From Anaeromicropila herbilytica (GTDB taxonomy: Bacteria; Bacillota; Clostridia; Lachnospirales; Lachnospiraceae), in assembly GCF_016591975.1 (NCBI RefSeq), contig NZ_AP024169.1, positions 3,777,295 through 3,809,294 on the forward strand: a DNA stretch of 32,000 nt, written 5' to 3'. Both the position numbers and the translations under genes were made by a program. Positions 2,619 through 30,661 of the stretch are shown in pieces; position 1 is the stretch's first letter, and the number at the start of each line of letters is the position of its first letter. Under the pieces are notes generated by a model. The model saw only the letters and a list, made by a program, of their open reading frames with translations, was not told the DNA's origin and did not search any database.

Positions 2619-3743
2619 ATGATAAAAGCAATTATCGTAGATAATGAAAAACCAGCAATACAAATATTAAAATTATTCTTAGAAAAGACAAATCAAATCG
2701 AAGTGATTGGTTGCTATTTAAACGCACCCAAAGCACTAGAAACTCTTATAACATTAGTGCCTGACGTTATTTTTCTTGATATTGATATGCCTCAAATGAA
2801 TGGCTTGGAGATGGCTGAAATCATTCAAAATCAAAATATTAATACAGAGATTGTATTTGTTACTGCATATAATCAATATGCACTTGATGCATTTCGTGTA
2901 AATGCTATTGACTATCTCTTAAAGCCACTCTCCATGGATGATATAGAAAAAACAGTAAAAAGGCTTAATAAAAGAATTATAACTACTCCATCTTTACCGA
3001 AAGTAAACAAAACGGCAAAAATTCATTGTTTTGGGAGACTCTTAGTGTATGGTTCTCCCGAAGATACCCCAATTAAGTGGAGAACTTCAAAAGCAGAGGA
3101 ATTATTTGCTTTTCTCTATCAAAACCGAGGCAATAGTGTACCTAAGACCGCAATCTGTAGTGCATTATGGAGTGATATTCCAGAGGATAAAGTAGATGTA
3201 TATCTCCACACTTCTATATATAAAATGAAAAAAGATCTACAAAGTTACCATATTCCTGTGGAGATAAAATTCAGTAATGGTTGTTATTATATGACGCTCC
3301 CTAATACATACAGTGATATAGAAGAATTTGATTCTATCATAGATTCTGATCTTCCTCTTGATTCTTCTACCCTCGAAAAATATGAGCGTGCGATCATTCT
3401 CTATAAAAATAATTATCTTGATAGCCATGAATACTTATGGTCTTTACCAACAAGAGAGCTTTATTATCAAAAATATCGTAACTTAATAAAACTTTTGGTA
3501 AATTATTATGTAAAAGAGAAAAATACAATAGCAATAGAGAAAATTATTAAACCATTATTAGAGAATTTTCCACTTGATGAATATGCTCATGAAACTTTAT
3601 TAAAAGTATATTATGTAAAAAAAGATCGTATTGCTTTTGTAACTCATTATAATCATATGCTTCGTTTGTATAAAAACAAATTAGGTATTACACCAAAACC
3701 TTCTATTGAAGCATTGTATAATAGTATTACAAAAAACACTTAA
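2619..3743 (+). CDS. Two-component response regulator, REC + SARP-like winged helix + BTAD (bacterial transcriptional activator domain)
   Basis: N-terminal receiver 'IIVDNE...VIFLDIDMPQMNG...VFVTAY...DYLLKP'. Middle 'KAEELFAFLYQNRG..VPKTAICSALW' looks like a winged-helix. The C-terminal helical-repeat region 'YERAIILYKNNYL...AHETLLKVYY...YNHMLRLYKNKLGITPKP' is typical of BTAD. RBS 'ataggaga' lies 6 nt before the ATG, 67 nt after the kinase stop. Confidence 0.8.
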   Translation: MIKAIIVDNEKPAIQILKLFLEKTNQIEVIGCYLNAPKALETLITLVPDVIFLDIDMPQMNGLEMAEIIQNQNINTEIVFVTAYNQYALDAFRVNAIDYLLKPLSMDDIEKTVKRLNKRIITTPSLPKVNKTAKIHCFGRLLVYGSPEDTPIKWRTSKAEELFAFLYQNRGNSVPKTAICSALWSDIPEDKVDVYLHTSIYKMKKDLQSYHIPVEIKFSNGCYYMTLPNTYSDIEEFDSIIDSDLPLDSSTLEKYERAIILYKNNYLDSHEYLWSLPTRELYYQKYRNLIKLLVNYYVKEKNTIAIEKIIKPLLENFPLDEYAHETLLKVYYVKKDRIAFVTHYNHMLRLYKNKLGITPKPSIEALYNSITKNT

Positions 3744-3755
3744 TATTTATTAATC

Positions 3756-3802
3756 AAAAAAGTCCTTAATTAGCATTTTTTACTAATTAAGGACTTTTTT
3801 GG
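3756..3802. terminator. Bidirectional rho-independent terminator between convergent genes
   Basis: Perfect 13-bp stem 'agtccttaattag' / 'ctaattaaggact' with a 9-nt loop. It is flanked by an A-run upstream and a T-run downstream. Confidence 0.8.
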
Positions 3803-3848
3803 TTTTTATGAATTTATTTATTTCACTTCATTTTCCTCCGCAATCTGT

Positions 3849-4586
3849 CTAATTGTTATGTTGAATATAATAATATAAATTTTCAACATATTGTTTTGCT
3901 TTCTCTTGGTCGGTTATCAGATCAAATGGATTATTTCCCGCTTCTATATACTGCTTAAAGAATGCTTTAATAACTTTATTTCTCTTTTCTCCACCTTCAA
4001 CATGATATTGGGCTCTAATTTGCTCAATCCTTTGTTTAATAACGCGATCAATGATTAGATCTTTATACCCAGTAATAATAATTGTAAATGAATCTCCTGT
4101 AAGAAATCTAAATTCTACACTATATACTCTTTGGTTTCCTTCTGACACACTTGCATAACAATAATATAATAAAAATTTAGGAATAAAATAGCCATTAATC
4201 TTATACCAATTTTCCGATTCCATAAAGCACTTATTCGGCAGATTAGATTCCGGTACACCCTTAAAATTTTGACTATTTATATGCTGTTTCAATACATTAT
4301 TAGGGATATACTGACTAATCCTTGGAACGCTTAACAATGGAGTTTTTATATATCTAATAAAGCTTGGAGACCATAACACAAGAATTATAACTATTACCAA
4401 TACACTTAAAAGTTCTTGTTGGTTTGATTTGATATCGATAGAATTTCCAGAAATATAATTGGAAACATAAACGATAATGTTATCTATTACATAAATTGCC
4501 AAGCACGAATATACCAAAAGACTTATAACTTTTTTTAAAGGATGTAGTTTTTTTAATTCGCATTCATTTACTGAATTATATGCCAT
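3849..4586 (-). CDS. Hypothetical membrane protein (two N-terminal TM helices + ~150-aa soluble domain); last gene of the toxin-like operon
   Basis: 245-aa ORF with strong RBS 'gaggaggaaac' upstream of the ATG. Hydrophobic segments are 'VISLLVYSCLAIYVIDNIIVYV' and 'LLSVLVIVIILVLWSP'. I recognise no family motif. Confidence 0.7.
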   Translation of the reverse strand: MAYNSVNECELKKLHPLKKVISLLVYSCLAIYVIDNIIVYVSNYISGNSIDIKSNQQELLSVLVIVIILVLWSPSFIRYIKTPLLSVPRISQYIPNNVLKQHINSQNFKGVPESNLPNKCFMESENWYKINGYFIPKFLLYYCYASVSEGNQRVYSVEFRFLTGDSFTIIITGYKDLIIDRVIKQRIEQIRAQYHVEGGEKRNKVIKAFFKQYIEAGNNPFDLITDQEKAKQYVENLYYYIQHNN

Positions 4587-4647
4587 CTTTTTAGTTTCCT
4601 CCTCTTTGTTCTCCTATCTTCTAATTTTTATTTATCCCTTTACCACT

Positions 4648-5100
4648 TTACTCTTCCCCTTTTTTCTCATATCCTACTTTAACTTGCATATAAGAAAAAC
4701 TATCATCACTAAAAATAACATGATACATAGGTGTAGTTTGATTTAAGGAAGACTGATTCATCAGTGTAAGTAGTGCTGAATATGCCAATTCTGTATCTTG
4801 CTCATAATCCTTCCATACAGTTGTAGACATCATATTCTCAACAGAATAATAAGAATGATAATACATAGTATCTGGCAGAGTGATATTTTCCTCTACTACT
4901 GGCATAAATAATTCAACTGACATAATCTCATCCATTGGAACGTTTTTCATTGAATAAAATAGTGGTCCATTTTTATGTAAATTTAATTTCTTTATTTCTG
5001 ATCCAAATTCATCTAATACTTCTTTCATATCATTATAATGAAAAGCGTAGTTTTTTGAAACAACATTGGTATAACGAATCGAATCTTTCAGATTAATCAT
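4648..5100 (-). CDS. Small soluble protein, paralogue of 5118-5561; possibly GyrI-like/DUF5085-like (candidate immunity protein)
   Basis: 150-aa ORF starting 17 nt after the upstream gene's stop. It shares motifs with its neighbour: 'NGPLFYSMKN' vs 'TGPMIYQMRN', and 'ELFMPV' vs 'TLFIPV'. The family assignment is from memory of size and pattern only. Confidence 0.7.
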   Translation of the reverse strand: MINLKDSIRYTNVVSKNYAFHYNDMKEVLDEFGSEIKKLNLHKNGPLFYSMKNVPMDEIMSVELFMPVVEENITLPDTMYYHSYYSVENMMSTTVWKDYEQDTELAYSALLTLMNQSSLNQTTPMYHVIFSDDSFSYMQVKVGYEKKGEE

Positions 5101-5117
5101 GTAGGTATCCTCATTTC

Positions 5118-5561
5118 TTACATCTTGATAATCGGTGCATAAATATCAACAATACTACCTCCAAACACTGGAAGATATATATTATAGAATGTTTCTTCAA
5201 GCTCCACACCAATCGATTGTGCTGTCATTTTTAATAATTCGTAGGAATCTTCAAAATCCTCATCCATATCAGAATGACGATAGGTTAATCCATCTTCGAA
5301 AGATAATGTATCCAAATAGAAGAATTTCTCATTTTCCTCCATATTAATCGGAGCATTCACAGGTATAAATAATGTAAATTCCTTCTTATCACTTTCCTTG
5401 ATATTCCTCATCTGATAAATCATTGGTCCTGTTGGATACAAACCATTTCTAATGATGGCATTACGTAATTCCTTTGATGCATTCATCCATTCATTTGATT
5501 CACATATTTCTTTTACGCTTATTACATGATGTAATATCAAAGAGCCTCTTTTAATCTTCAT
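5118..5561 (-). CDS. Small soluble protein, paralogue of 4648-5100 (candidate immunity protein)
   Basis: ORF 5118-5573. The first ATG (5573) is followed by 'ggaggtaatt' and then a second ATG (5561). The GGAGG is therefore better read as the RBS of the second ATG, giving 'MKIKRGS...'. Confidence 0.7.
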   Translation of the reverse strand: MKIKRGSLILHHVISVKEICESNEWMNASKELRNAIIRNGLYPTGPMIYQMRNIKESDKKEFTLFIPVNAPINMEENEKFFYLDTLSFEDGLTYRHSDMDEDFEDSYELLKMTAQSIGVELEETFYNIYLPVFGGSIVDIYAPIIKM

Positions 5562-5669
5562 AATTACCTCCATTTTGCAAATATTTCTAGAAGAATTTTA
5601 CAATTCATTAGAGCTTCTGTAAATCTATTCTATTAAATCTGTAATATATTTTCGTCTACTAACAATGTT

Positions 5670-6851
5670 CTAAAATATTCCACTTACGAAATTACATACA
5701 GAGTTATATCCGTTACTTAACCCCTCTTCTACTGCATCAACCGAGTTCTCAGCAAGCATTTTCACACCATCAACTAAACTATCACTTTGGTTATCTCCAT
5801 CAAAATCATATATCTCACAATTAATTGCCCAGTTAATTGCTGCTCCACTTGCTGCTCCAACAACTGTACCTACTGGAGGCACTATAAAGGAACCAATTGC
5901 TGCTCCTGCTGCTACTGCTCCTGCTCCTGTACCCAAATCTACCGCTGAATCTATAACAAATTTTTCTGTATTATCAGCGGAATATTCCCACTTTCCATCT
6001 TTATAAAAATTATCAACAAAATCACTACCTACGTCAAATGCAGTGGATGCTGCTCCTAAAAATTTTGCTGACTTTCCAAGCTTACCCAAGCCTTCATAAT
6101 CAGCTTTTTTAAATCCATCTGTTAATTCCTTAAATGTTAATCCATTCATCAGTTTATTTCCAAATATGTTCAATTTACTTTTTGATAAATTATCCATATA
6201 ATTACCCAACATTTTATAATCTACATTATCAAAGTAACGATTTTTTCCACGTGTAAATACATCGTTCCTTAAATCATATATATCTATCCCTCTATTTTTA
6301 AGTGTTCTCGTCAAATAATCTGTCCATGTAGTGGAACCACCGAGTAAATTGGTAAGACTATCACTTAATTCCCTGTTTGTCTTATCCGTTATTGCTTTGA
6401 TATATTTTACTCCATTGACTTCAAATGTTTCAAACCTTAAGCCACTACGAAGAATATCTAAGGCCTCTGCAAAGGATTTATCCTTAAATTGCCCAAAAGC
6501 ATTAAAGAAAAATTCAAAACCATCATTACCTTTTCCATTCTTCATTATATCATATATTTGTTTCCAGATTGGACTATATTGGGTTACAATGTCTTCTTCT
6601 GCTTCTTGATATTTGTTGATTGATTGCTTTAGAGTTTCTTTCATAGCATTCATACCTATCTGATATCGCTTCAGTTCATCTTCAATCTGCTTTAATTGCT
6701 CTCCTATACCACATTCAAAGCTGATAGATGAACGTATTCCACTTCTAACATCACCGACTCTTGTATGTAATTGTTCTAATGTCTTCTTATATTCATTTAG
6801 TGTATTAATTTCGACTACTAACTGTTTAATTTTAACTAACAGATCTTGCAC
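5670..6851 (-). CDS. Toxin-like protein: N-terminal helical hairpin (WXG100/LXG-like by appearance) + C-terminal glycine-zipper hydrophobic region
   Basis: 393-aa ORF with a GTG start preceded by 'aaggaggga'. The N-terminal ~95 aa are heptad-like and helical with a Gly-containing turn 'FECGIGEQ'. The C-terminal 'GTGAGAVAAGAAIGSFIVPPVGTVVGAASGAAINWAI' (about nt 5817-5954) has GxxxG repeats and is followed by an acidic tail. Confidence 0.75.
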   Translation of the reverse strand: MQDLLVKIKQLVVEINTLNEYKKTLEQLHTRVGDVRSGIRSSISFECGIGEQLKQIEDELKRYQIGMNAMKETLKQSINKYQEAEEDIVTQYSPIWKQIYDIMKNGKGNDGFEFFFNAFGQFKDKSFAEALDILRSGLRFETFEVNGVKYIKAITDKTNRELSDSLTNLLGGSTTWTDYLTRTLKNRGIDIYDLRNDVFTRGKNRYFDNVDYKMLGNYMDNLSKSKLNIFGNKLMNGLTFKELTDGFKKADYEGLGKLGKSAKFLGAASTAFDVGSDFVDNFYKDGKWEYSADNTEKFVIDSAVDLGTGAGAVAAGAAIGSFIVPPVGTVVGAASGAAINWAINCEIYDFDGDNQSDSLVDGVKMLAENSVDAVEEGLSNGYNSVCNFVSGIF

Positions 6852-6908
6852 AATTATCCCTCCTTATCCTTATTTTATCTTATCACAAACTATATTATTT
6901 GTGTTGAA

Positions 6909-6948
6909 TTCCTGACAGACGACATGTTTTCCTGACAGACAACATGTT
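6909..6948. repeat. Tandem direct repeat 2 x 20 bp (candidate operator)
   Basis: 'ttcctgacagacgacatgtt' (6909-6928) is immediately followed by 'ttcctgacagacaacatgtt' (6929-6948), with 1 mismatch. The pair lies 58-97 bp upstream of the GTG of the 5670-6851 gene, in the divergent intergenic region. Confidence 0.9.
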
Positions 6949-7121
6949 AAATACTTTTTTTGTATCTTTTAATACTATTTTAAAGCCATTTTATATCAGT
7001 GCTTGAACCTTTTACATTGTCGTAGTCATAACAAATCTGTGAATTAACTTATGATGTAAAATATATCTTAGTCCTATTCCAAGCCATCTCTTTGTTGAGT
7101 TTCATATCAACATTTCATTGT

Positions 7122-7150
7122 TTTACACTGTTCTACTTCTATGGTATGCT
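7122..7150 (+). promoter_or_regulatory. Putative sigma-A promoter for the XRE-FlhA_C-like gene
   Basis: 'tttaca' (7122-7127), 17-nt spacer, 'tatgct' (7145-7150) preceded by 'tgg' (extended -10 TGn). It lies about 77 nt upstream of the ATG. Confidence 0.35.
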
Positions 7151-7226
7151 ATCTACATGGAATTCCAAAATAATGAAAACAAGATATCTTATACAATAAG
7201 AAAATAACAATAAAGGAGTCACTGAC

Positions 7227-8054
7227 ATGAATATTAATAATTTTGCAGAAAGACTTATCATAGCTAGAAAAGAAAAAGGATATACTCAAGAAGAATTAGC
7301 TTTACGCTTGGGTGTTACCCCTCAGGCAATTTCAAAATGGGAGCGAAATAATAGCTATCCAGATATAGAATTACTTTGCTCTATTGCAAATGTTCTAGAT
7401 TCTTCTTTGGATTATCTATTAAATATCCAGTTAAAATCCTCTCAAATGACAGATGATATTAATGAACTTAAGAAACAGCAGTTACTTCAAAGTGCTTTAT
7501 CAGACCCTCTTCTTCTAGAAATAGGTACCTCCTTAGTTGAATTGATGATTGAGGAAAATCAAAATCAATTCAAACATCTCCATACCGTTAAGGAACATCT
7601 AGCTGAACAATATGGCATAATACTTCCACTTGTTCGTATTCGCGATGTTGATAGCATCGGTGAATATGAATATCGATTTTATAGTTATGATAAATTAATT
7701 GGTTCTGGTACTTTAACACCTTTTATAAATTATGAAGAAGAAAAAGAAGATGCCATTCGAGTAATAATGGAACACTTTGAAAAAGTTGCTTATGAGAACT
7801 ATTCTAAGATTATTAATAAAGAAATAGTAAGTAACTTAATTACAAGCCTTAGGTTGGACTATCCAGCAGTAGTCGAAGGGGTTATACCAGAAAAGATCTC
7901 TCTCTTAACTCTTGTTCAAATACTTAGTAAATTAGTGGAGAACCGAACTTCCATTCGTAACCTTATTAAAATTATTGAGATTATTGAGAATGAAATAGAT
8001 AAAACAAGCGATTATGATGCCATTGTCTCGATTATTGAAGATTACCTCAAATAA
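7227..8054 (+). CDS. XRE-family HTH fused to an FlhA/FHIPEP cytoplasmic-domain-like module
   Basis: N-terminus 'RLIIARKEKGYTQEELALRLGVTPQAISKWERNNSYPDIELLCSIANVLDSSLDYLL' is a classic HTH_3. The C-terminal ~180 aa (nt ~7503-8051) contain 'LLLEIGTSLVEL...ILPLVRIRD...EYEYRF' and 'YPAVVEGVIPEKISLLTLVQILSKLVENRTSIRNLIKIIEII'. These parallel the recalled FlhA C-domain motifs 'IEFEFGYGLIPL...VIPVVRIRDN...NEYRLKI' and 'YPVLVEEVTPNPLSVGDIQKVLAKLLKEKVSIRNLVTIFETL'. RBS 'aaaggag'. Confidence 0.8.
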   Translation: MNINNFAERLIIARKEKGYTQEELALRLGVTPQAISKWERNNSYPDIELLCSIANVLDSSLDYLLNIQLKSSQMTDDINELKKQQLLQSALSDPLLLEIGTSLVELMIEENQNQFKHLHTVKEHLAEQYGIILPLVRIRDVDSIGEYEYRFYSYDKLIGSGTLTPFINYEEEKEDAIRVIMEHFEKVAYENYSKIINKEIVSNLITSLRLDYPAVVEGVIPEKISLLTLVQILSKLVENRTSIRNLIKIIEIIENEIDKTSDYDAIVSIIEDYLK

Positions 8055-8060
8055 GAACTG

Positions 8061-8096
8061 AAAATAAGCTAGTGTTTTTCACTAGCTTATTTATCT
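8061..8096. terminator. Bidirectional terminator between convergent genes
   Basis: Stem 'ataagctagtg' / 'cactagcttat' with loop 'ttttt'. It has A-rich 5' and T-rich 3' flanks. Confidence 0.75.
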
Positions 8097-10242: not shown

Positions 10243-12264
10243 TTATTCTGCTATAATCTGGCTCTCATGTTTTGCAAAGAAGTCAATTCTTGGTTCCAAG
10301 AATTTCAACTCATGGTGCTCTACATCCTTTGTAAAGAAATCCATTGTCTCGAAGATATATTCCCAATTCCAGATCTTATCACTTACATTTAGATAATCAC
10401 GAATCATCTCACATCCTTCTGGGGCAATAGGATGAATGAATGCTGTTGCAGTTCGAACAGCATGGAAGGAGTCAATTAACACTTGCTTTCTAAGAGCATC
10501 ATCTTCCTCTTTCTCAGCTATTCTCATATTATTTACCCAATATTTATTAGCATTACGAAGATAAGTATCTAACAAATAAGTAATCATATGAAACTCGTGA
10601 TTATACATTTTTAGTTCATAATCAAGAATAGCTTCTTTAGCTTCTGATAGCACAGAATCACTTATGGAACCTTCTGGAATCTTAGAGTCATAATATTTTT
10701 GTGCTGTATAGAAGCAAGAACGAACCAAGCGATTGAATACATTGGTTAATAAATTGCCATCTTTTAGAACTGTATCTACCCCTTCTCTTTCCTCTTCTTT
10801 CATATAGACTTGTGGCTTAAAGCTTACGCTTTTATTCGATAATCCAAGACTTAGGAAATGAATTCTTAATTGTTCCTTTGTATAGTAGTTCAGTAGTTCT
10901 TTTGCCATTGGAGGCTTAATCTCACTGCTACTACTTGCTTTCTTATCCATAAAAAGTATATGATTGTTAGCAATTAGGTGAGTTGATCTTAACTTACCCT
11001 CTTCTGGATCAATCGTATAATCTTTTCCCTGCAAAGCCATAAATAAAGCCATTTGCGCAACTCCATAGAAATAGATATTATCCTCACCTATGAATTGATA
11101 TACCTTTGCATCTTTGGACTTCCACCAGTTTTCCCATTCTGTTTTATCCTTACCAATTGATTCTAGATAAGTTTTGGTAAATGATATTGGAGCCCATAAG
11201 GATTCTGGCCATACCCAGAAAGTTAGATTCGATTCACCTTCAATTTCTGGTACTTTCACTCCCCATTCAATATTACCTGTCAAACGGAATGGAACTAAAG
11301 TCTTACCTGTTCGATAGTTAATTCCCTCTTTGGTTAAGATGTTACAAGCTTCTTCCCTGTCTGTCAACTTTTCAAACAAGATCGTTATTGATGCTTTTTT
11401 CTCTTCTTCAAGTAGCTTATGTTTAGGAAGAGCATCTATGATATCTTTCTTCTCTTCATAGTAAGATTTCTTAATATATATGATAGGTTTTTTTAAGAAT
11501 TCTTCCATGGTATTCAATTGATATTTTCTTGAGTTTGTATTTGTTCTAAAATAGGATACCAATTCTCTCAGCGGTTCAAAGAATTCTTCTAATTTGAAAT
11601 ACCAATTGGATACTTCTCTTAATTCGGGTTTCTTACTAGATAAAGCACTAATTGGGTTAATTAATTCACTTGGCATATACTGATGTCCTAAAGAACACTC
11701 ATCTGCATAACCTTTCTCTGATTGACATCCTTCAATTGGACATTTACCAACTACCTGCCTTCCATTTAGGAACACCTTATACTCTGGATCATAGAATTGA
11801 GGTGTCGATAGTTTTTCAAGATATCCATTATGATAAAGTGATTCAAAAATATCCTTTGATACTTCTTCATGAATCTCACTTGCTCTATCTAGAGCACTTG
11901 CTCCATATAGGTTTAAACTAATATCATAATCTTCTAATGTCTGTTTTTGCTTTTCATGATTACCATTCACATAATCATGAATACTTCCGTCAAATTCACC
12001 ATTCTCTACAAGTTTACGATAACTCTCTAAGATTGGTGATCCATAGCAGTCCGTGCCAGATACAAAGATTACATTCTCTTCACCAATTCGATCCCTTAAG
12101 AACCTTGCAAAGGTATCTGCATGAACGAATACTCCACCAACATGACCAAAATGTAATTCTTTATTACCATATGGCATACCAGCTGTTATCACTGCTCTTT
12201 TAGGAAATTCAGGTCTGACTTTTTCCTTTTTGGGTCTTCTATCAATTTTATTATTGTCTTCCAT
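10243..12264 (-). CDS. metG: Methionyl-tRNA synthetase family class I aaRS (divergent; no C-terminal tRNA-binding domain)
   Basis: HIGH region: 'MPYGNKELHFGHVGG', then 'SGTDCYGSPI'. 'QFYDPEYKVFLNGRQVVGKCPIEGCQSEKGYADECSLGHQYMPSELINP' parallels recalled E. coli MetRS '[48 protein letters not shown]'. 'YQFIGEDNIYFYG' parallels 'YHFIGKDIVYFH'. The KMSKS position reads 'KKASSSS'. A T-box leader lies upstream. Confidence 0.85.
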   Translation of the reverse strand: MEDNNKIDRRPKKEKVRPEFPKRAVITAGMPYGNKELHFGHVGGVFVHADTFARFLRDRIGEENVIFVSGTDCYGSPILESYRKLVENGEFDGSIHDYVNGNHEKQKQTLEDYDISLNLYGASALDRASEIHEEVSKDIFESLYHNGYLEKLSTPQFYDPEYKVFLNGRQVVGKCPIEGCQSEKGYADECSLGHQYMPSELINPISALSSKKPELREVSNWYFKLEEFFEPLRELVSYFRTNTNSRKYQLNTMEEFLKKPIIYIKKSYYEEKKDIIDALPKHKLLEEEKKASITILFEKLTDREEACNILTKEGINYRTGKTLVPFRLTGNIEWGVKVPEIEGESNLTFWVWPESLWAPISFTKTYLESIGKDKTEWENWWKSKDAKVYQFIGEDNIYFYGVAQMALFMALQGKDYTIDPEEGKLRSTHLIANNHILFMDKKASSSSEIKPPMAKELLNYYTKEQLRIHFLSLGLSNKSVSFKPQVYMKEEEREGVDTVLKDGNLLTNVFNRLVRSCFYTAQKYYDSKIPEGSISDSVLSEAKEAILDYELKMYNHEFHMITYLLDTYLRNANKYWVNNMRIAEKEEDDALRKQVLIDSFHAVRTATAFIHPIAPEGCEMIRDYLNVSDKIWNWEYIFETMDFFTKDVEHHELKFLEPRIDFFAKHESQIIAE

Positions 12265-12393
12265 TCTCTTTCTCCTATCTTTACCGTTAATCTCTTAATA
12301 CAATTTCAATATACTATATTTAAATTGTATTTCAGTTATATTTCTTATTAATATTCTTTTTACTATTTCGCAAATATAACACTAAAAAAGTAT

Positions 12394-12750
12394 AAAAAAA
12401 ATCACCTCCTACATTAATCTGTAGGGGCGAGAATATCGCGGTACCACCCTATTTTATTAATATGTCACCATATTAATCTTATCAAGTACAGCAACCACTT
12501 TGCATATACTCTAGTTCTGTAACGTGAACATACGTCATAGCATCATCTAACACTTTCAAATAAGATTATCAATAATCTATAGTTATTGATATTGTCTAAA
12601 AACATTCTATTCTATCTTCAAGTATTAAAATCCGTATGAAGCTCAGAGGCTTGTTTCATTACTATTTTGTCTGTTTTCTCTCAGCGTCTCGAAAACTTCT
12701 CTGTAAGATTACATAATAATTACTCTTCTCGTCATTGCTTATCATTTTAT
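12394..12750 (-). promoter_or_regulatory. T-box riboswitch leader with intrinsic terminator
   Basis: All on the minus strand. Stem I starts with 'UGACGAGAAGAGUA' (K-turn plus S-turn AGUA). It has an AG bulge 'ACAGAGAAG' and a distal loop 'GCUGAGAG' closed by GUUUUC/GAAAAC. The 3' specifier-loop strand reads 'GAAACAAGC' followed by 'CUCUGAGC'. The T-box sequence 'AAUAGGGUGGUACCGCG' corresponds to plus 12437-12449 ('cgcggtaccaccc'). The terminator is 'CGCCCCUACA..UGUAGGAGGUG' plus U8 (12394-12429). Confidence 0.9.
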
Positions 12751-12758
12751 TTATTTTT

Positions 12759-12787
12759 ATTATATTTAAGATTTATAAAACTGTCAA
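12759..12787 (-). promoter_or_regulatory. Consensus sigma-A promoter driving the T-box leader/metG
   Basis: Minus strand: TTGACA (12787..12782), 17-nt spacer, TATAAT (12764..12759). Confidence 0.7.
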
Positions 12788-12877
12788 ACAAAATTTGGAT
12801 ATATTGCACTTTTAACTAGAAAGTTTCACTAATATACTAATTATTTTTCCCAACTTTATTTATAATATTAGTAGCAT

Positions 12878-12916
12878 AAAAGGCTATTTGGATTTTAATT
12901 TTCCAAATAGCCTTTT
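12878..12916 (-). terminator. Terminator downstream of the P-type ATPase gene
   Basis: Hairpin 'aaaaggctatttgga' / 'tccaaatagcctttt' with an 8-9-nt loop. It lies 47 nt past the ATPase stop codon. Confidence 0.7.
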
Positions 12917-12962
12917 AACATTTTATAAAGATGAATATTTCCAGTTTTGTATCTTTATATGA

Positions 12963-27397: not shown

Positions 27398-27937
27398 ATG
27401 AATATAGGACATAAAATAAAAGAACTTCGAGTTCAAAAAGGACTAACACAGGAGGAACTTGCAGACCGTTCTGAATTATCTAAGGGATTTATCTCCCAAT
27501 TAGAACGTGACTTAACCTCTCCTTCGATTGCAACATTGGTAGATATTCTTCAATGCCTTGGAACGAACTTAGAAGAATTTTTTACTAATACTTCTTCTGA
27601 ACAGGTTGTATTTAAGAAAACAGATTTCTTCGAAAAATATGACGCCGACTTGAAAAGTGAAATAAAATGGATTATCCCAAATGCTCAGAAAAACATGATG
27701 GAGCCTATTTACCTTACACTAGATACTGGAGGCTCAACATATCCTGATAATCCTCATGAAGGTGAAGAATTTGGCTATGTTCTGAATGGCAACATTACGA
27801 TTCACATTGGTAACAAGACTTACAAGGCGAAAAAAGGAGAAGCTTTTTATTTTACTCCAAATAAAAAACATCATATCAGTGCCTCAGGAAAAACTGGTGC
27901 AACTCTTATATGGGTGTCGACACCGCCAAGTTTTTAA
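27398..27937 (+). CDS. XRE-family HTH + cupin transcriptional regulator (PuuR-like)
   Basis: HTH_3: 'IKELRVQKGLTQEELADRSELSKGFISQLERDLTSPSIATLVDIL'. C-terminal cupin: 'HEGEEFGYVLNGNITIHIGNKTYKAKKGEAFYF'. Confidence 0.88.
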   Translation: MNIGHKIKELRVQKGLTQEELADRSELSKGFISQLERDLTSPSIATLVDILQCLGTNLEEFFTNTSSEQVVFKKTDFFEKYDADLKSEIKWIIPNAQKNMMEPIYLTLDTGGSTYPDNPHEGEEFGYVLNGNITIHIGNKTYKAKKGEAFYFTPNKKHHISASGKTGATLIWVSTPPSF

Positions 27938-27985: not shown

Positions 27986-29062
27986 ATGGCTAACGATAAA
28001 TTAATTGATCTAGTTAATATACGCAAAGCTTATAATAATAATGTCGTATTAGACGATTTAAATCTCTATATCAAGAGAAATGAATTTTTAACACTACTTG
28101 GCCCAAGTGGCTGTGGTAAGACAACGACACTTCGAATCATTGGCGGTTTTGAGAACCCCGATTCAGGAAGTGTAATCTTTGAAGGAAATAATATTACCAA
28201 GCTTCCTCCAAATGAAAGACAATTAAACACAGTGTTCCAAAAATATGCTCTTTTTACGCATATGACAATTGCTGAAAATATTGCTTTTGGACTTAAGATT
28301 AAGAAAAAATCAAAATCTTATATACAAGATAAAATAAAGTATGCTCTAAAACTAGTAAATCTAGATTGCTATGAGAATCGTACCGTAGACTCTCTTAGCG
28401 GTGGTCAACAACAGCGTATTGCTATTGCAAGAGCTATCGTAAACGAACCAAAAGTTCTTCTATTAGATGAACCACTTGGTGCACTTGACCTTAAGCTCCG
28501 TCAAGATATGCAATATGAATTAATCCGTTTAAAAAATGAATTAGGTATTACATTTATCTATGTTACTCATGATCAAGAAGAAGCTTTAACGATGTCGGAT
28601 ACCATCGTTGTTATGAATCAAGGCTACATCCAACAGATTGGTACACCTGAGGATATCTACAATGAACCTAAGAATGCCTTTGTTGCTGATTTTATTGGAG
28701 AAAGCAATATTATTCCCAGTACAATGGTTGAAGATAAAGTGGTAAATATTCTTGGAACAAAATTCCCTTGTGTAGATACTGGCTTTGGTAAGAATCAACC
28801 AGTTGACGTAGTCATTCGTCCTGAGGATATCGAATTGGTTAGACCTGAGGATGGTATTATCAAAGGTCAAGTAACTTCCCTTATCTTTAAAGGTGTTCAT
28901 TATGAAATGGGAGTTATGGCAAATGGTCATGAATGGCTTGTACATAGTACTACTCTCTCCCCAGTTGGAAATGAAGTTGGTTTAAAAGTTGATCCATATA
29001 ATATTCAGATTATGAATAAACCTGCTTCTGAAGATGAAGAGGCGGTGATCGTGAATGAATAA
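27986..29062 (+). CDS. potA: Spermidine/putrescine ABC transporter ATP-binding protein
   Basis: Walker A 'GPSGCGKTT', signature '[14 protein letters not shown]', Walker B 'LLLDEP', and a C-terminal TOBE-like domain. RBS 'aggagg'. Confidence 0.93.
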
Positions 29063-29873
29063 AAAGACCTTCCTATCCTTTCCGTATTTACTTTGGATGG
29101 TAGCTTTTATCGTAATTCCTTTATTTGTAATCGTATATTATGGTTTTACTGCTATGGACGGTAACTTCACAATCGATAATGTTAAAAGTATTCTAGATCC
29201 GATTAATCTAAAATCATTATGGCTTTCCTTAGAATTAGCATTTATAAGTACGTTAATCTGTCTGATCCTAGCCTATCCATTAGCAATGATTCTTAAGGGA
29301 ATGAATATGAATAATAACAGCTTTATCGTGCTTATATTTATTCTTCCTATGTGGATGAACTTTTTACTTCGTACTTTGGCTTGGCAGACATTATTAGATC
29401 GAAGTGGCATTATTAATACCGCTCTTACTGCTCTTCATCTTCCAACAATTGATGTCATCAATACACCAGCTGCTATTGTGATTGGTATGGTATATAACTT
29501 TTTACCTTTTATGGTATTACCAATCTATAATGTACTAATTAAAATTGATAACAATACCATTAATGCAGCAAGAGATCTTGGTGCAAATAATATTCAGACT
29601 TTTATAAAGATTATTTTCCCACTTAGTTTTCCCGGTGTCGTTAGTGGTATTACTATGGTATTTGTACCTGCAATGACTACTTTCGTTATTTCGGATTTAC
29701 TTGGTGGAAGTAAGATCTTGTTAATTGGTAATGTCATCGAACAAGAATTTACGGTATCAAATAATTGGAATGTAGGATCCGGTCTTTCCCTTGTATTAAT
29801 GATATTTATTCTATTCAGTATGGCTTTAATCGCCAAATATGATAAAGCATCGGAGGGAACAAATCTATGGTAA
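29055..29873 (+). CDS. potB: Spermidine/putrescine ABC transporter permease
   Basis: About 6 TM segments with the EAA-type loop '[26 protein letters not shown]'. It overlaps potA by 8 nt. Confidence 0.9.
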
Positions 29874-30661
29874 AGAAGATATCACAGCGAATATATATTT
29901 TTTTATTGTTCCTATTCCTATACGCTCCAATCTTAACATTAATCGTCCTTTCTTTTAATGCTTCAAAATCAAGAGCAAGATGGGGTGGCTTTACACTTGA
30001 ATGGTATACCGAGTTATTTAACGATGAGCAGATTATGACCGCTTTGACTACAACACTTATCATCGCGTTTTTATCTGCGCTTATAGCAACTGCGCTAGGA
30101 ACCTTCGCTTCTATTGGAATCAATTCTATGAAAAGAAGATGGAAGTCCTTATTCTTAAACATAACAAATATTCCTATGTTAAATGCAGACATCGTTACTG
30201 GTATCTCTTTAATGTTATTATTTATAGGCTTTCGTGAACTTTTTAAAATTGACTTTGAACTTGGATTTACCTCTGTGTTAATCTCACATATTACTTTTAA
30301 TATACCTTATGTTGTTCTAAGTGTTATGCCAAAATTATCACAGACAGATAAATCAACTTATGAGGCTGCACTTGACCTTGGTGCCACTCCAGCCTTTGCT
30401 TTCTTTAAAGTTATCTTACCGGATATCTTTCCTGGCGTAATAACTGGATTTTTATTAGCGTTTACCATGTCTTTAGATGACTTTGTAATTACTCATTTTA
30501 CAAAGGGTCCTGGAATTGATACCTTATCTACTAAGATATATACTGAAGTTAGAAAAGGAATTAAACCAGAGATGTATGCACTATCTACGTTACTCTTCGT
30601 AACTGTACTTGTACTTCTATTAATTATTAATAGTAAATCAAGCAAGCATCAACGTGCTTAA
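29867..30661 (+). CDS. potC: Spermidine/putrescine ABC transporter permease
   Basis: About 6 TM segments with the EAA-type loop 'YEAALDLGATPAFAFFKVILPDIFPG'. It overlaps potB by 7 nt. Confidence 0.9.
   Translation: MVKKISQRIYIFLLFLFLYAPILTLIVLSFNASKSRARWGGFTLEWYTELFNDEQIMTALTTTLIIAFLSALIATALGTFASIGINSMKRRWKSLFLNITNIPMLNADIVTGISLMLLFIGFRELFKIDFELGFTSVLISHITFNIPYVVLSVMPKLSQTDKSTYEAALDLGATPAFAFFKVILPDIFPGVITGFLLAFTMSLDDFVITHFTKGPGIDTLSTKIYTEVRKGIKPEMYALSTLLFVTVLVLLLIINSKSSKHQRA

Follow-up and report, generated by a model that had tools for sequence, protein, structure and literature searches.

The stretch of DNA analysed here, 32,000 nucleotides of the Anaeromicropila herbilytica genome (contig NZ_AP024169.1, positions 3,777,295 to 3,809,294; 'the window' throughout), contains a toxin/immunity-type operon and, divergent from it, a gene for an XRE-type helix-turn-helix (HTH) regulator whose C-terminal domain is related to the flagellar export-gate protein FlhA. 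In Streptococcus gallolyticus, the glycine-zipper LXG toxin TelE is countered by TipE, an immunity protein from family DUF5085 (PMC10434224), and in Staphylococcus aureus ST398 the membrane-depolarising LXG toxin EsxX meets compartment-specific immunity, in that a heterodimer of the DUF5085 proteins ExiA and ExiB neutralises cytoplasmic EsxX (PMC12744356, bioRxiv 10.64898/2026.03.12.711312). Membrane proteins are encoded alongside in both systems, Gallo_0563 with TelE and ExiCD with EsxX (PMC10434224, PMC12744356), and orphan immunity genes are common for the EsxX-type toxin class (PMC12744356). As for FlhA, its cytoplasmic part (FlhA_C) binds helical chaperone-substrate complexes in flagella (PMC8166844). 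The chaperone-binding dimple involves Asp-456 and Phe-459 in subdomain D2 and Thr-490 in D1, within the nonameric ring the linker touches D1 and D3 of the subunit next to it, and FliJ binds the linker and the cleft between D4 domains (PMC8166844, PMC9431611).

The five genes of the locus lie where the original prediction, made from the letters and an open reading frame (ORF) list, had placed them. On the minus strand are a 393-aa glycine-zipper toxin gene (5670..6851), two DUF5085 genes of 151 aa (5118..5573) and 150 aa (4648..5100) and a gene for a 245-aa membrane protein with two transmembrane segments (2-TM; 3849..4586); on the plus strand, across a 375-bp intergenic region that was likewise correctly described, is the 275-aa regulator gene (7227..8054). 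That prediction had taken all five for one linked, uncharacterised module. We consider it probable instead that two independent units stand side by side, the regulator and the toxin cassette being probably adjacent by chance, and that the regulator, as it appears, controls its own promoter rather than the toxin. The proposed linkage is not supported by comparison with other genomes: relatives of the cassette genes are absent from all 60 regulator-bearing loci (654 kb), and the regulator gene is absent from all nine toxin loci, an outcome that the original prediction had itself named as speaking against its hypothesis. The toxin and both DUF5085 homologues, on the other hand, occur together in every one of these nine loci, which represent five distinct contexts.

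The regulator consists of an XRE HTH domain (residues 1-66) followed by a domain like the linker, D1 and D3 of FlhA (residues ~79-275). This fusion, already recognised in the original prediction, is borne out by sequence (Pfam HTH_3 4.4e-17; FHIPEP 4.1e-22, 78.9 bits against a cut-off of 29.1; NCBIfam agrees) and by fold, since the AlphaFold2 (AF2) model has a predicted local distance difference test (pLDDT) score of 87.6, with the HTH folding as five helices at pLDDT ~90, and its top Foldseek matches are FlhA_C and SctV_C (best 3mix, E 3.7e-10). A profile of the regulator family matches Bacillus subtilis FlhA_C (3mix, E 1.2e-29) in two separate blocks, with D2 left out between them. One spans the linker and D1, the other the last D1 helix and D3; the intervening ~55 residues of B. 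subtilis FlhA_C (119-173 in the chain) give way to ~10 in the regulator. The same two blocks appear on the 697-aa FlhA chain 12dv_B (337-423 and 488-576), and a family block falls on residues 487-578 of the 692-aa FlhA chain 36hw. The regulator ends at the end of D3, so that D4 is absent, and within its 275 aa there is no FlhA-type polytopic membrane domain, the FHIPEP match covering the cytoplasmic part of the profile only.

Compared with FlhA and SctV, then, the regulator retains the linker, D1 and D3 in both sequence and fold, together with the GYXLI-type glycine (G100, invariant in the family) and a P-x-x-R-x-x-D motif, but lacks the transmembrane domain, the D2 subdomain with the chaperone dimple and the D4 subdomain that forms the FliJ cleft, and is fused to a DNA-binding domain. 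Because D2 and D4 are missing while the linker, D1 and D3 are kept, the protein has no canonical docking pocket and has preserved the ring-contact elements. The description of this domain as one for substrate and chaperone docking is therefore not supported, as the dimple residues Asp-456 and Phe-459 are deleted with D2 and D4 is absent (PMC8166844, PMC9431611). Most likely, the FlhA-derived domain serves oligomerisation or the binding of a partner through the linker, D1 and D3.

This architecture is shared by a family of 765 homologues. The 120 listed all combine HTH and FHIPEP in ~240-330 aa, and named members are mostly from Lachnospiraceae (Anaerocolumna, Herbinix, Mobilitalea, L. phytofermentans, Roseburia, Butyrivibrio and Epulopiscium). 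In a first scan of contigs, 64 of 80 loci held HTH-only relatives (e.g. in Collinsella) and were left out. The neighbours of the regulator differ between genomes and are often housekeeping genes; in L001, L014 and L084, for example, it sits amid those of the holB...abrB...tatD-ksgA region. No second FlhA-like gene was found in the 60 regulator-bearing loci, and neither flhA nor any other flagellar gene stood beside the regulator in the 57 loci with a C-domain match. A Pfam scan of 145 flanking ORFs from 17 regulator loci returned 177 families, with no flagellar, type VII secretion system (T7SS), LXG or DUF5085 family among them; the sole recurrent family was HTH_3, in eight of the 145 ORFs (L001-L016, L082, L084, L085; +/-5 kb). 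We rejected as a C-domain paralogue the 273-aa HTH_3 protein encoded directly upstream of the regulator in L. phytofermentans, its similarity being confined to the HTH. Family members are misleadingly annotated as 'FHIPEP family type III secretion protein', and the literature searched held nothing relevant on an HTH-FHIPEP regulator or on the biology of Anaeromicropila. The XRE-FlhA(L-D1-D3) family thus appears to be undescribed in that literature and is the novel part of the region.

The promoter of the regulator carries a sharply conserved element. At 7094..7126 (plus strand) an operator-like sequence, GTTGAG-N7-TCAAC-N5-ATTGTTTTAC, forms an inverted repeat with a third half-site that runs into the -35 box of a promoter predicted by consensus scan (7122..7150, plus strand; TTTACA-17-TATGCT with TG upstream). 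The upstream regions of all 20 homologues compared align without gaps as GTTKA-N8-TMAAC-N5-GTTGTTTTAC-N17/18-TATAAT, the -35 and -10 boxes being conserved across the homologue loci as well. A position weight matrix (PWM) from whose construction the window was excluded gives 7094-7126 a score of 28.3 bits, compared with 7.1 for the runner-up in the 32 kb and 14.2 for the best shuffle, and in a leave-one-out analysis the regulator-upstream site was the top match over ~20 kb in every locus. When metagenome contigs were scanned for the element from DNA only, 41 of 72 matches preceded an XRE-FlhA_C gene, whose start lay 40-119 nt downstream and whose product was 30-60% identical to the window regulator. 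Among the other 31 matches, 20 fell within coding frames 100 aa or more in length and two at contig ends; six matches from the human gut (L100, L138, L144, L156, L157 and L167), in which a near-identical pattern lies inside a ~365-aa frame, were set aside as a coding coincidence rather than an operator.

The recognition helix of the HTH, QAVSKWER, is invariant in the regulator family, and matches of the domain in the PDB include P22 C2, the ICEBs1 Xre regulator and SinR. With SinR and other XRE/Cro-C1 repressors the regulator shares the N-terminal HTH_3, a putative operator with GTT-containing half-sites (GTTCTYT in SinR, PMC3163267) and an operator-like element on its own promoter that suggests autoregulation, whereas at its C-terminus it has nothing related to the helical hook of SinR/SinI. 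Given a conserved element on its own promoter, an invariant recognition helix and SinR-like half-sites, the simplest reading is that the regulator autoregulates. An alternative is that another, unlinked factor binds the element, or that the element is an unusual promoter. The most conserved part, GTTGTTTTAC, does overlap the -35, which speaks for this alternative. We nevertheless regard it as unlikely, as the element stays with the gene in 20 or more genomic contexts that are unrelated to one another, a GTTGA/TCAAC inverted repeat is typical of XRE dimer operators, the recognition helix does not vary, and the half-site resembles that of SinR, which among solved HTH structures with a known site is the nearest.

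Since the linker, D1 and D3 are exactly the elements through which FlhA_C subunits make contact in the ring, one could picture the regulator as a soluble mimic of an export-gate subunit, which would dock on the flagellar gate, or be excluded from it, depending on the gate's conformation, with its DNA binding, at its own promoter and at further targets, reporting the status of assembly. This idea is rather unlikely as it stands; were it true, it would add a new flagellar checkpoint in Lachnospiraceae beside FlgM/sigma-D and FliW/CsrA. More generally, should the regulator link flagellar assembly or another envelope state to transcription, it would matter for the control of commensal flagellin. 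Of the two units it is the more valuable lead, a transcription factor widespread in gut and rumen Lachnospiraceae that incorporates part of the flagellar export gate, and its sharply conserved candidate operator makes the family experimentally tractable.

The second unit, the cassette, with its DUF5085 pair, glycine zipper and membrane protein, supports the original reading of it as a toxin/immunity operon. In the 393-aa toxin, the helical hairpin and the glycine zipper that had been proposed are both present, the hairpin at the N-terminus (~1-105) and the zipper as a C-terminal run of GxxxG motifs (~300-345), flanking a central domain; the zipper reads GTGAGAVAAGAAIGSFIVPPVGTVVGAASGAAI. The protein matches no Pfam family above cut-off, and NCBIfam agrees. 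The family retrieved by a profile search numbers 976 representative clusters, of which 121 reach E <= 1e-30, and within this family a GxxxG/AxxxG run is conserved over toxin residues ~303-337, as expected of a glycine zipper: G316, G320, P325, G328, G332 and G336 are invariant in family alignment A2, and G328 and G332 are so in alignment A4 too. The 110 best relatives differ at their N-termini, 28 having an LXG domain (best E 2.8e-58) and two a WXG100 domain, while the short form of ~100-135 aa found in the window toxin is the majority (62 of 110). Against PDB sequences the family profile gave coiled-coil noise and an insignificant match to S. aureus EsxA (E 0.23). By analogy with its described counterparts, the toxin would depolarise or permeabilise target membranes.

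The two proteins of ~150 aa are distant paralogues, as had been proposed (26% identity, E 5e-6), and both belong to Pfam PF16895 (cut-off 30 bits), the first with 44.7 bits (E 2.4e-11) and the second with 104.3 bits (E 1e-29). The first, which is soluble in having no transmembrane segment, matches L096_147 and L097_141 at E ~1e-17 and holds the position of ExiA and Gallo_0564; the second has homologues at the same position in loci L087 and L090 (46-52% identical), holds the position of ExiB and TipE, and by analogy with these likely binds the zipper region of the toxin directly (PMC12744356, PMC10434224).

The 245-aa protein is a 2-TM protein, as first read, with hydrophobic segments at 16-34 and 52-70 near its N-terminus; no Pfam family matches it above threshold, and NCBIfam agrees. 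Over a stretch of 179 aa it shares 30% identity (E 3e-11) with L096_298, a 2-TM protein whose gene directly follows the toxin gene in the T7SSb locus L096, and among 5.8 billion proteins it has one close homologue only. That homologue, P0134 (L093 5460-6233), is encoded on its own in an unrelated context with neither toxin nor DUF5085 neighbours, as would suit an orphaned immunity gene. In other cassettes the place is taken by another membrane protein, which is DUF3592-like and 138 aa long in L087 and L090 and has six TM segments in L095. By analogy, the 245-aa protein is a candidate for conferring immunity to toxin from outside the cell.

Gene for gene, therefore, the operon is hardly uncharacterised: toxin, DUF5085 pair and membrane protein match TelE/TipE and EsxX/ExiAB/ExiCD (PMC10434224, PMC12744356), and each of the four components turns up again among relatives. 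The likeness to TelE/Gallo_0564/TipE/Gallo_0563 lies in a C-terminal glycine-zipper toxin, in two DUF5085 genes in a row, the second matching the family better than the first, and in a membrane-protein gene in the same operon. The differences are that the window toxin has a ~105-aa hairpin rather than a Pfam-detectable LXG domain, that no genes for the partners Lap1, Lap2 and LcpE lie upstream of the cassette, that the membrane protein has two transmembrane segments rather than six and comes last in the operon, and that the cassette lies away from T7SS core genes. With EsxX/ExiAB/ExiCD, compared by gene content, it shares the combination of a toxin, two soluble DUF5085 proteins and one or more membrane proteins, as well as orphan copies of a membrane immunity gene elsewhere (P0134), but it has a single 2-TM protein in place of the ExiC/ExiD pair (DUF5079, DUF5080) and lies outside an ess locus.

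These comparisons also bear on how the toxin might leave the cell, which the original prediction had found unexplained. It had noted, correctly, the lack of T7SS core, flagellar, phage and transposase families, which held when all ORFs of at least 70 aa in the window were scanned; the T7SSb core genes EssC, YukD/EsaB and EsxA are thus missing from the 32 kb. Relatives of the toxin are, however, embedded in T7SSb loci. In L096 and L097, the relatives P0127 and P0130 are encoded directly downstream of YukD, an EssC-type FHA-FtsK ATPase of ~1500 aa and WXG100, and P0130 has the same short type of N-terminus as the window toxin. The LXG-type relative in L095 has a DUF5344 gene upstream. Because relatives sit in T7SSb loci and 28 of the 110 carry LXG, the toxin family can be read as T7SSb cargo. 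On sequence grounds, the cassette would be a stand-alone T7SSb effector/immunity cassette of the TelE/EsxX type and an ordinary member of this characterised class, apparently departing from it only in a variant N-terminus and in gene order. It adds a Lachnospiraceae example to the class, and the finding that the commonest form of the cargo has a short hairpin rather than a full LXG domain bears on substrate recognition by the T7SSb.

The cassette also appears to have a promoter architecture of its own. A consensus scan predicts a sigma-A-type promoter for the toxin operon at 6889..6918 (minus strand; CTGTCA-18-TATAGT, 9/12 positions), the -35 of which is overlapped by the proximal copy of a 2 x 20-nt tandem direct repeat (6909-6928 and 6929-6948, lying 58-97 nt upstream of the start codon of the toxin gene). 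The original prediction had found this repeat, 19 of 20 bases of which are identical between copies, and it is unique in the window and never occurs in shuffles. Its proposed role as the operator of the regulator is not supported, as the family's element is on the regulator's own promoter, the PWM scan of the window found no copy near the toxin promoter, and the repeats at 6909-6948 share no sequence with the element. Repeats at the same relative position and of other sequence are found in two stand-alone cassettes, in L090 (20 nt x 2, 20-nt spacing) and L087 (13-nt core, 21-nt spacing), and no XRE-FlhA_C gene lies within 10 kb in either. Since stand-alone cassettes have their own repeats with no regulator nearby, we take the tandem repeat for a feature of the cassette promoter, and its overlap with the -35 suggests an activator, for which it is probably the site. 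These other repeats lie at nt 1-40 of L090-L092 and at nt 9895-9928 of L087. Of 13 P0122 contigs, the three inspected all stop right at the repeat, a hint that assembly is interrupted there by an array that is longer or reiterated.

A candidate for this activator is encoded next door. The gene at 2619..3743 (plus strand), convergent with the toxin operon and sharing its terminator, encodes a SARP-like response regulator with REC, weak winged-helix and BTAD domains (Pfam Response_reg 4e-22, BTAD 2.3e-5, above cut-off, and Trans_reg_C 7e-4). Regulators of the REC-winged helix-BTAD type are known to bind tandem direct repeats that overlap the -35. The protein is a candidate only for binding the repeats at 6909-6948, as its association with the cassette is not conserved. 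A LytTR-type (AgrA/ComE) consensus, compared with the repeats by eye, gave no convincing match.

Taken together, two units would function as follows. In the first (3849-6851, minus strand), the hairpin of the toxin would serve in targeting and the glycine zipper would act on target membranes; the two DUF5085 proteins would associate as a heterodimer in the producer's cytoplasm and there mask the zipper, and the 2-TM protein would protect against toxin arriving from outside, the whole operon being transcribed from an activator-driven promoter with its -35 overlapped by the 20-nt repeats. In the second (7094-8054, plus strand), the regulator would bind the GTTGA/TCAAC/GTTG element and regulate itself.

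Several points weigh against this picture. On the side of the regulator, a divergent layout with a common 375-bp intergenic region is the classic arrangement of a regulator and its target, and a lineage-specific recruitment may have occurred; the genomes of other cassettes could, moreover, carry the regulator elsewhere and use it in trans. It is phylogenetic footprinting alone that points to the regulator as the protein bound to the conserved element, the 41 metagenome positives comprise only 11 distinct element sequences, and the first alignment was anchored on the best match to GTTGTTTTAC. On the side of the cassette, neither WXG100 nor the N-terminal LXG domain (PF04740), which is ~200 aa long, matches the window toxin above cut-off, and its hairpin matches the second half of LXG-type N-termini weakly (hhalign probability 74%, E 2.9e-5). 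The AF2 model of the toxin, built from a 12-sequence alignment, is unusable at pLDDT 42. Upstream of the toxin there are no genes for small helical partners of the Lap1/Lap2 (DUF5344) or Lcp (DUF4176) type, the intergenic region containing no credible small ORF, and secretion by a T7SS in A. herbilytica itself would have to be presumed from the relatives.

One way to accommodate the layout would be a local recruitment, in which the regulator also controls the toxin promoter in this genome only, through weak half-sites or by looping from 7094-7126, and senses no toxin. The divergent promoters are ~200 bp apart and a single GTTGA half-site (6903-6907) lies beside the repeats; yet one such 5-mer is expected by chance, the best PWM score elsewhere in the window (7.1 bits) is below the shuffle maximum (14.2), and the predicted promoters do not overlap, so we judge recruitment quite improbable. 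The comparison carries the warning that a regulator and an operon may face away from each other simply because of where one of them happened to insert.

An equally improbable reading concerns the cassette, which may not be a T7SS effector here but either a copy that is degenerate or orphaned and persists because of its immunity genes, or a toxin that is released or used by another route. The lack of an LXG or WXG100 match would fit this, as would the absence of Lap/Lcp partner genes and T7SS genes within 32 kb, and orphan immunity genes are common (PMC12744356), the only close homologue of the 245-aa protein being such an orphan. The toxin ORF is intact, however, with all invariant zipper residues kept, and its short hairpin is the majority form and occurs in a T7SSb locus (L097). 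It is common, besides, for LXG toxins to be encoded away from the secretion locus, and the proteins of the operon have no match in the PADLOC library of anti-phage defence systems. Least of all do we credit the mechanism first proposed, in which the FlhA_C-like domain would sense the N-terminal helices of the toxin or a small partner and control the toxin operon through the 20-nt repeats: the units are adjacent and divergent and the C-domain is truly FlhA_C-like, with FlhA_C binding helical chaperone-substrate complexes (PMC8166844), but the absence of co-localisation in 60 regulator or nine toxin loci, the variable and often housekeeping contexts of a 765-member regulator family, the loss of D2 with Asp-456 and Phe-459 and of D4 (PMC8166844, PMC9431611), and repeats unlike the family's conserved element make it highly improbable.

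With two independent units as the preferred reading, the remaining features of the region can be briefly described. The bidirectional intrinsic terminator that had been predicted to close the minus-strand operon is a strong hairpin at 3749..3805, which the toxin operon shares with the response-regulator gene converging on it; its stem of 21 bp (-28.1 kcal/mol, z = -6.7) is bordered by A and T tracts, so that both strands have a T-tract. A likely terminator hairpin at 8062..8092 (13-nt arms, 100% complementary, 5-nt loop) lies between the regulator gene and the convergent GH25 gene. Rfam and tRNA scans revealed nothing real, the miRNA matches being the terminator hairpin.

As to the wider surroundings, the window cassette and the LXG-type cassette of L095 (6157-9975) both lie in a conserved metS-tatD-rnmV-ksgA neighbourhood (metG is at 10243-12264 in the window), and several regulator homologues, in the flanks of L001, L014 and L084, lie in the adjoining holB-yaaT...abrB region. 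Insertions may favour this housekeeping neighbourhood, or it may be where the regulator was located ancestrally. Upstream of the methionyl-tRNA synthetase gene, where one could expect a T-box leader in a Firmicute, the ~700-nt gap (12265-12962) contains no Rfam family at gathering score. At the start of the window, 14-2551 encodes an 845-aa sensor of unusual architecture, with a 7TMR-DISM membrane domain, HisKA and HATPase domains, a receiver and a second, LytS-type His_kinase domain; HATPase_c matches the protein in two stretches (best residues 369-478). Finally, a second XRE-type regulator, with HTH_3 and cupin domains, is encoded at 27398-27937, directly upstream of an ABC transporter operon (27986-30661).

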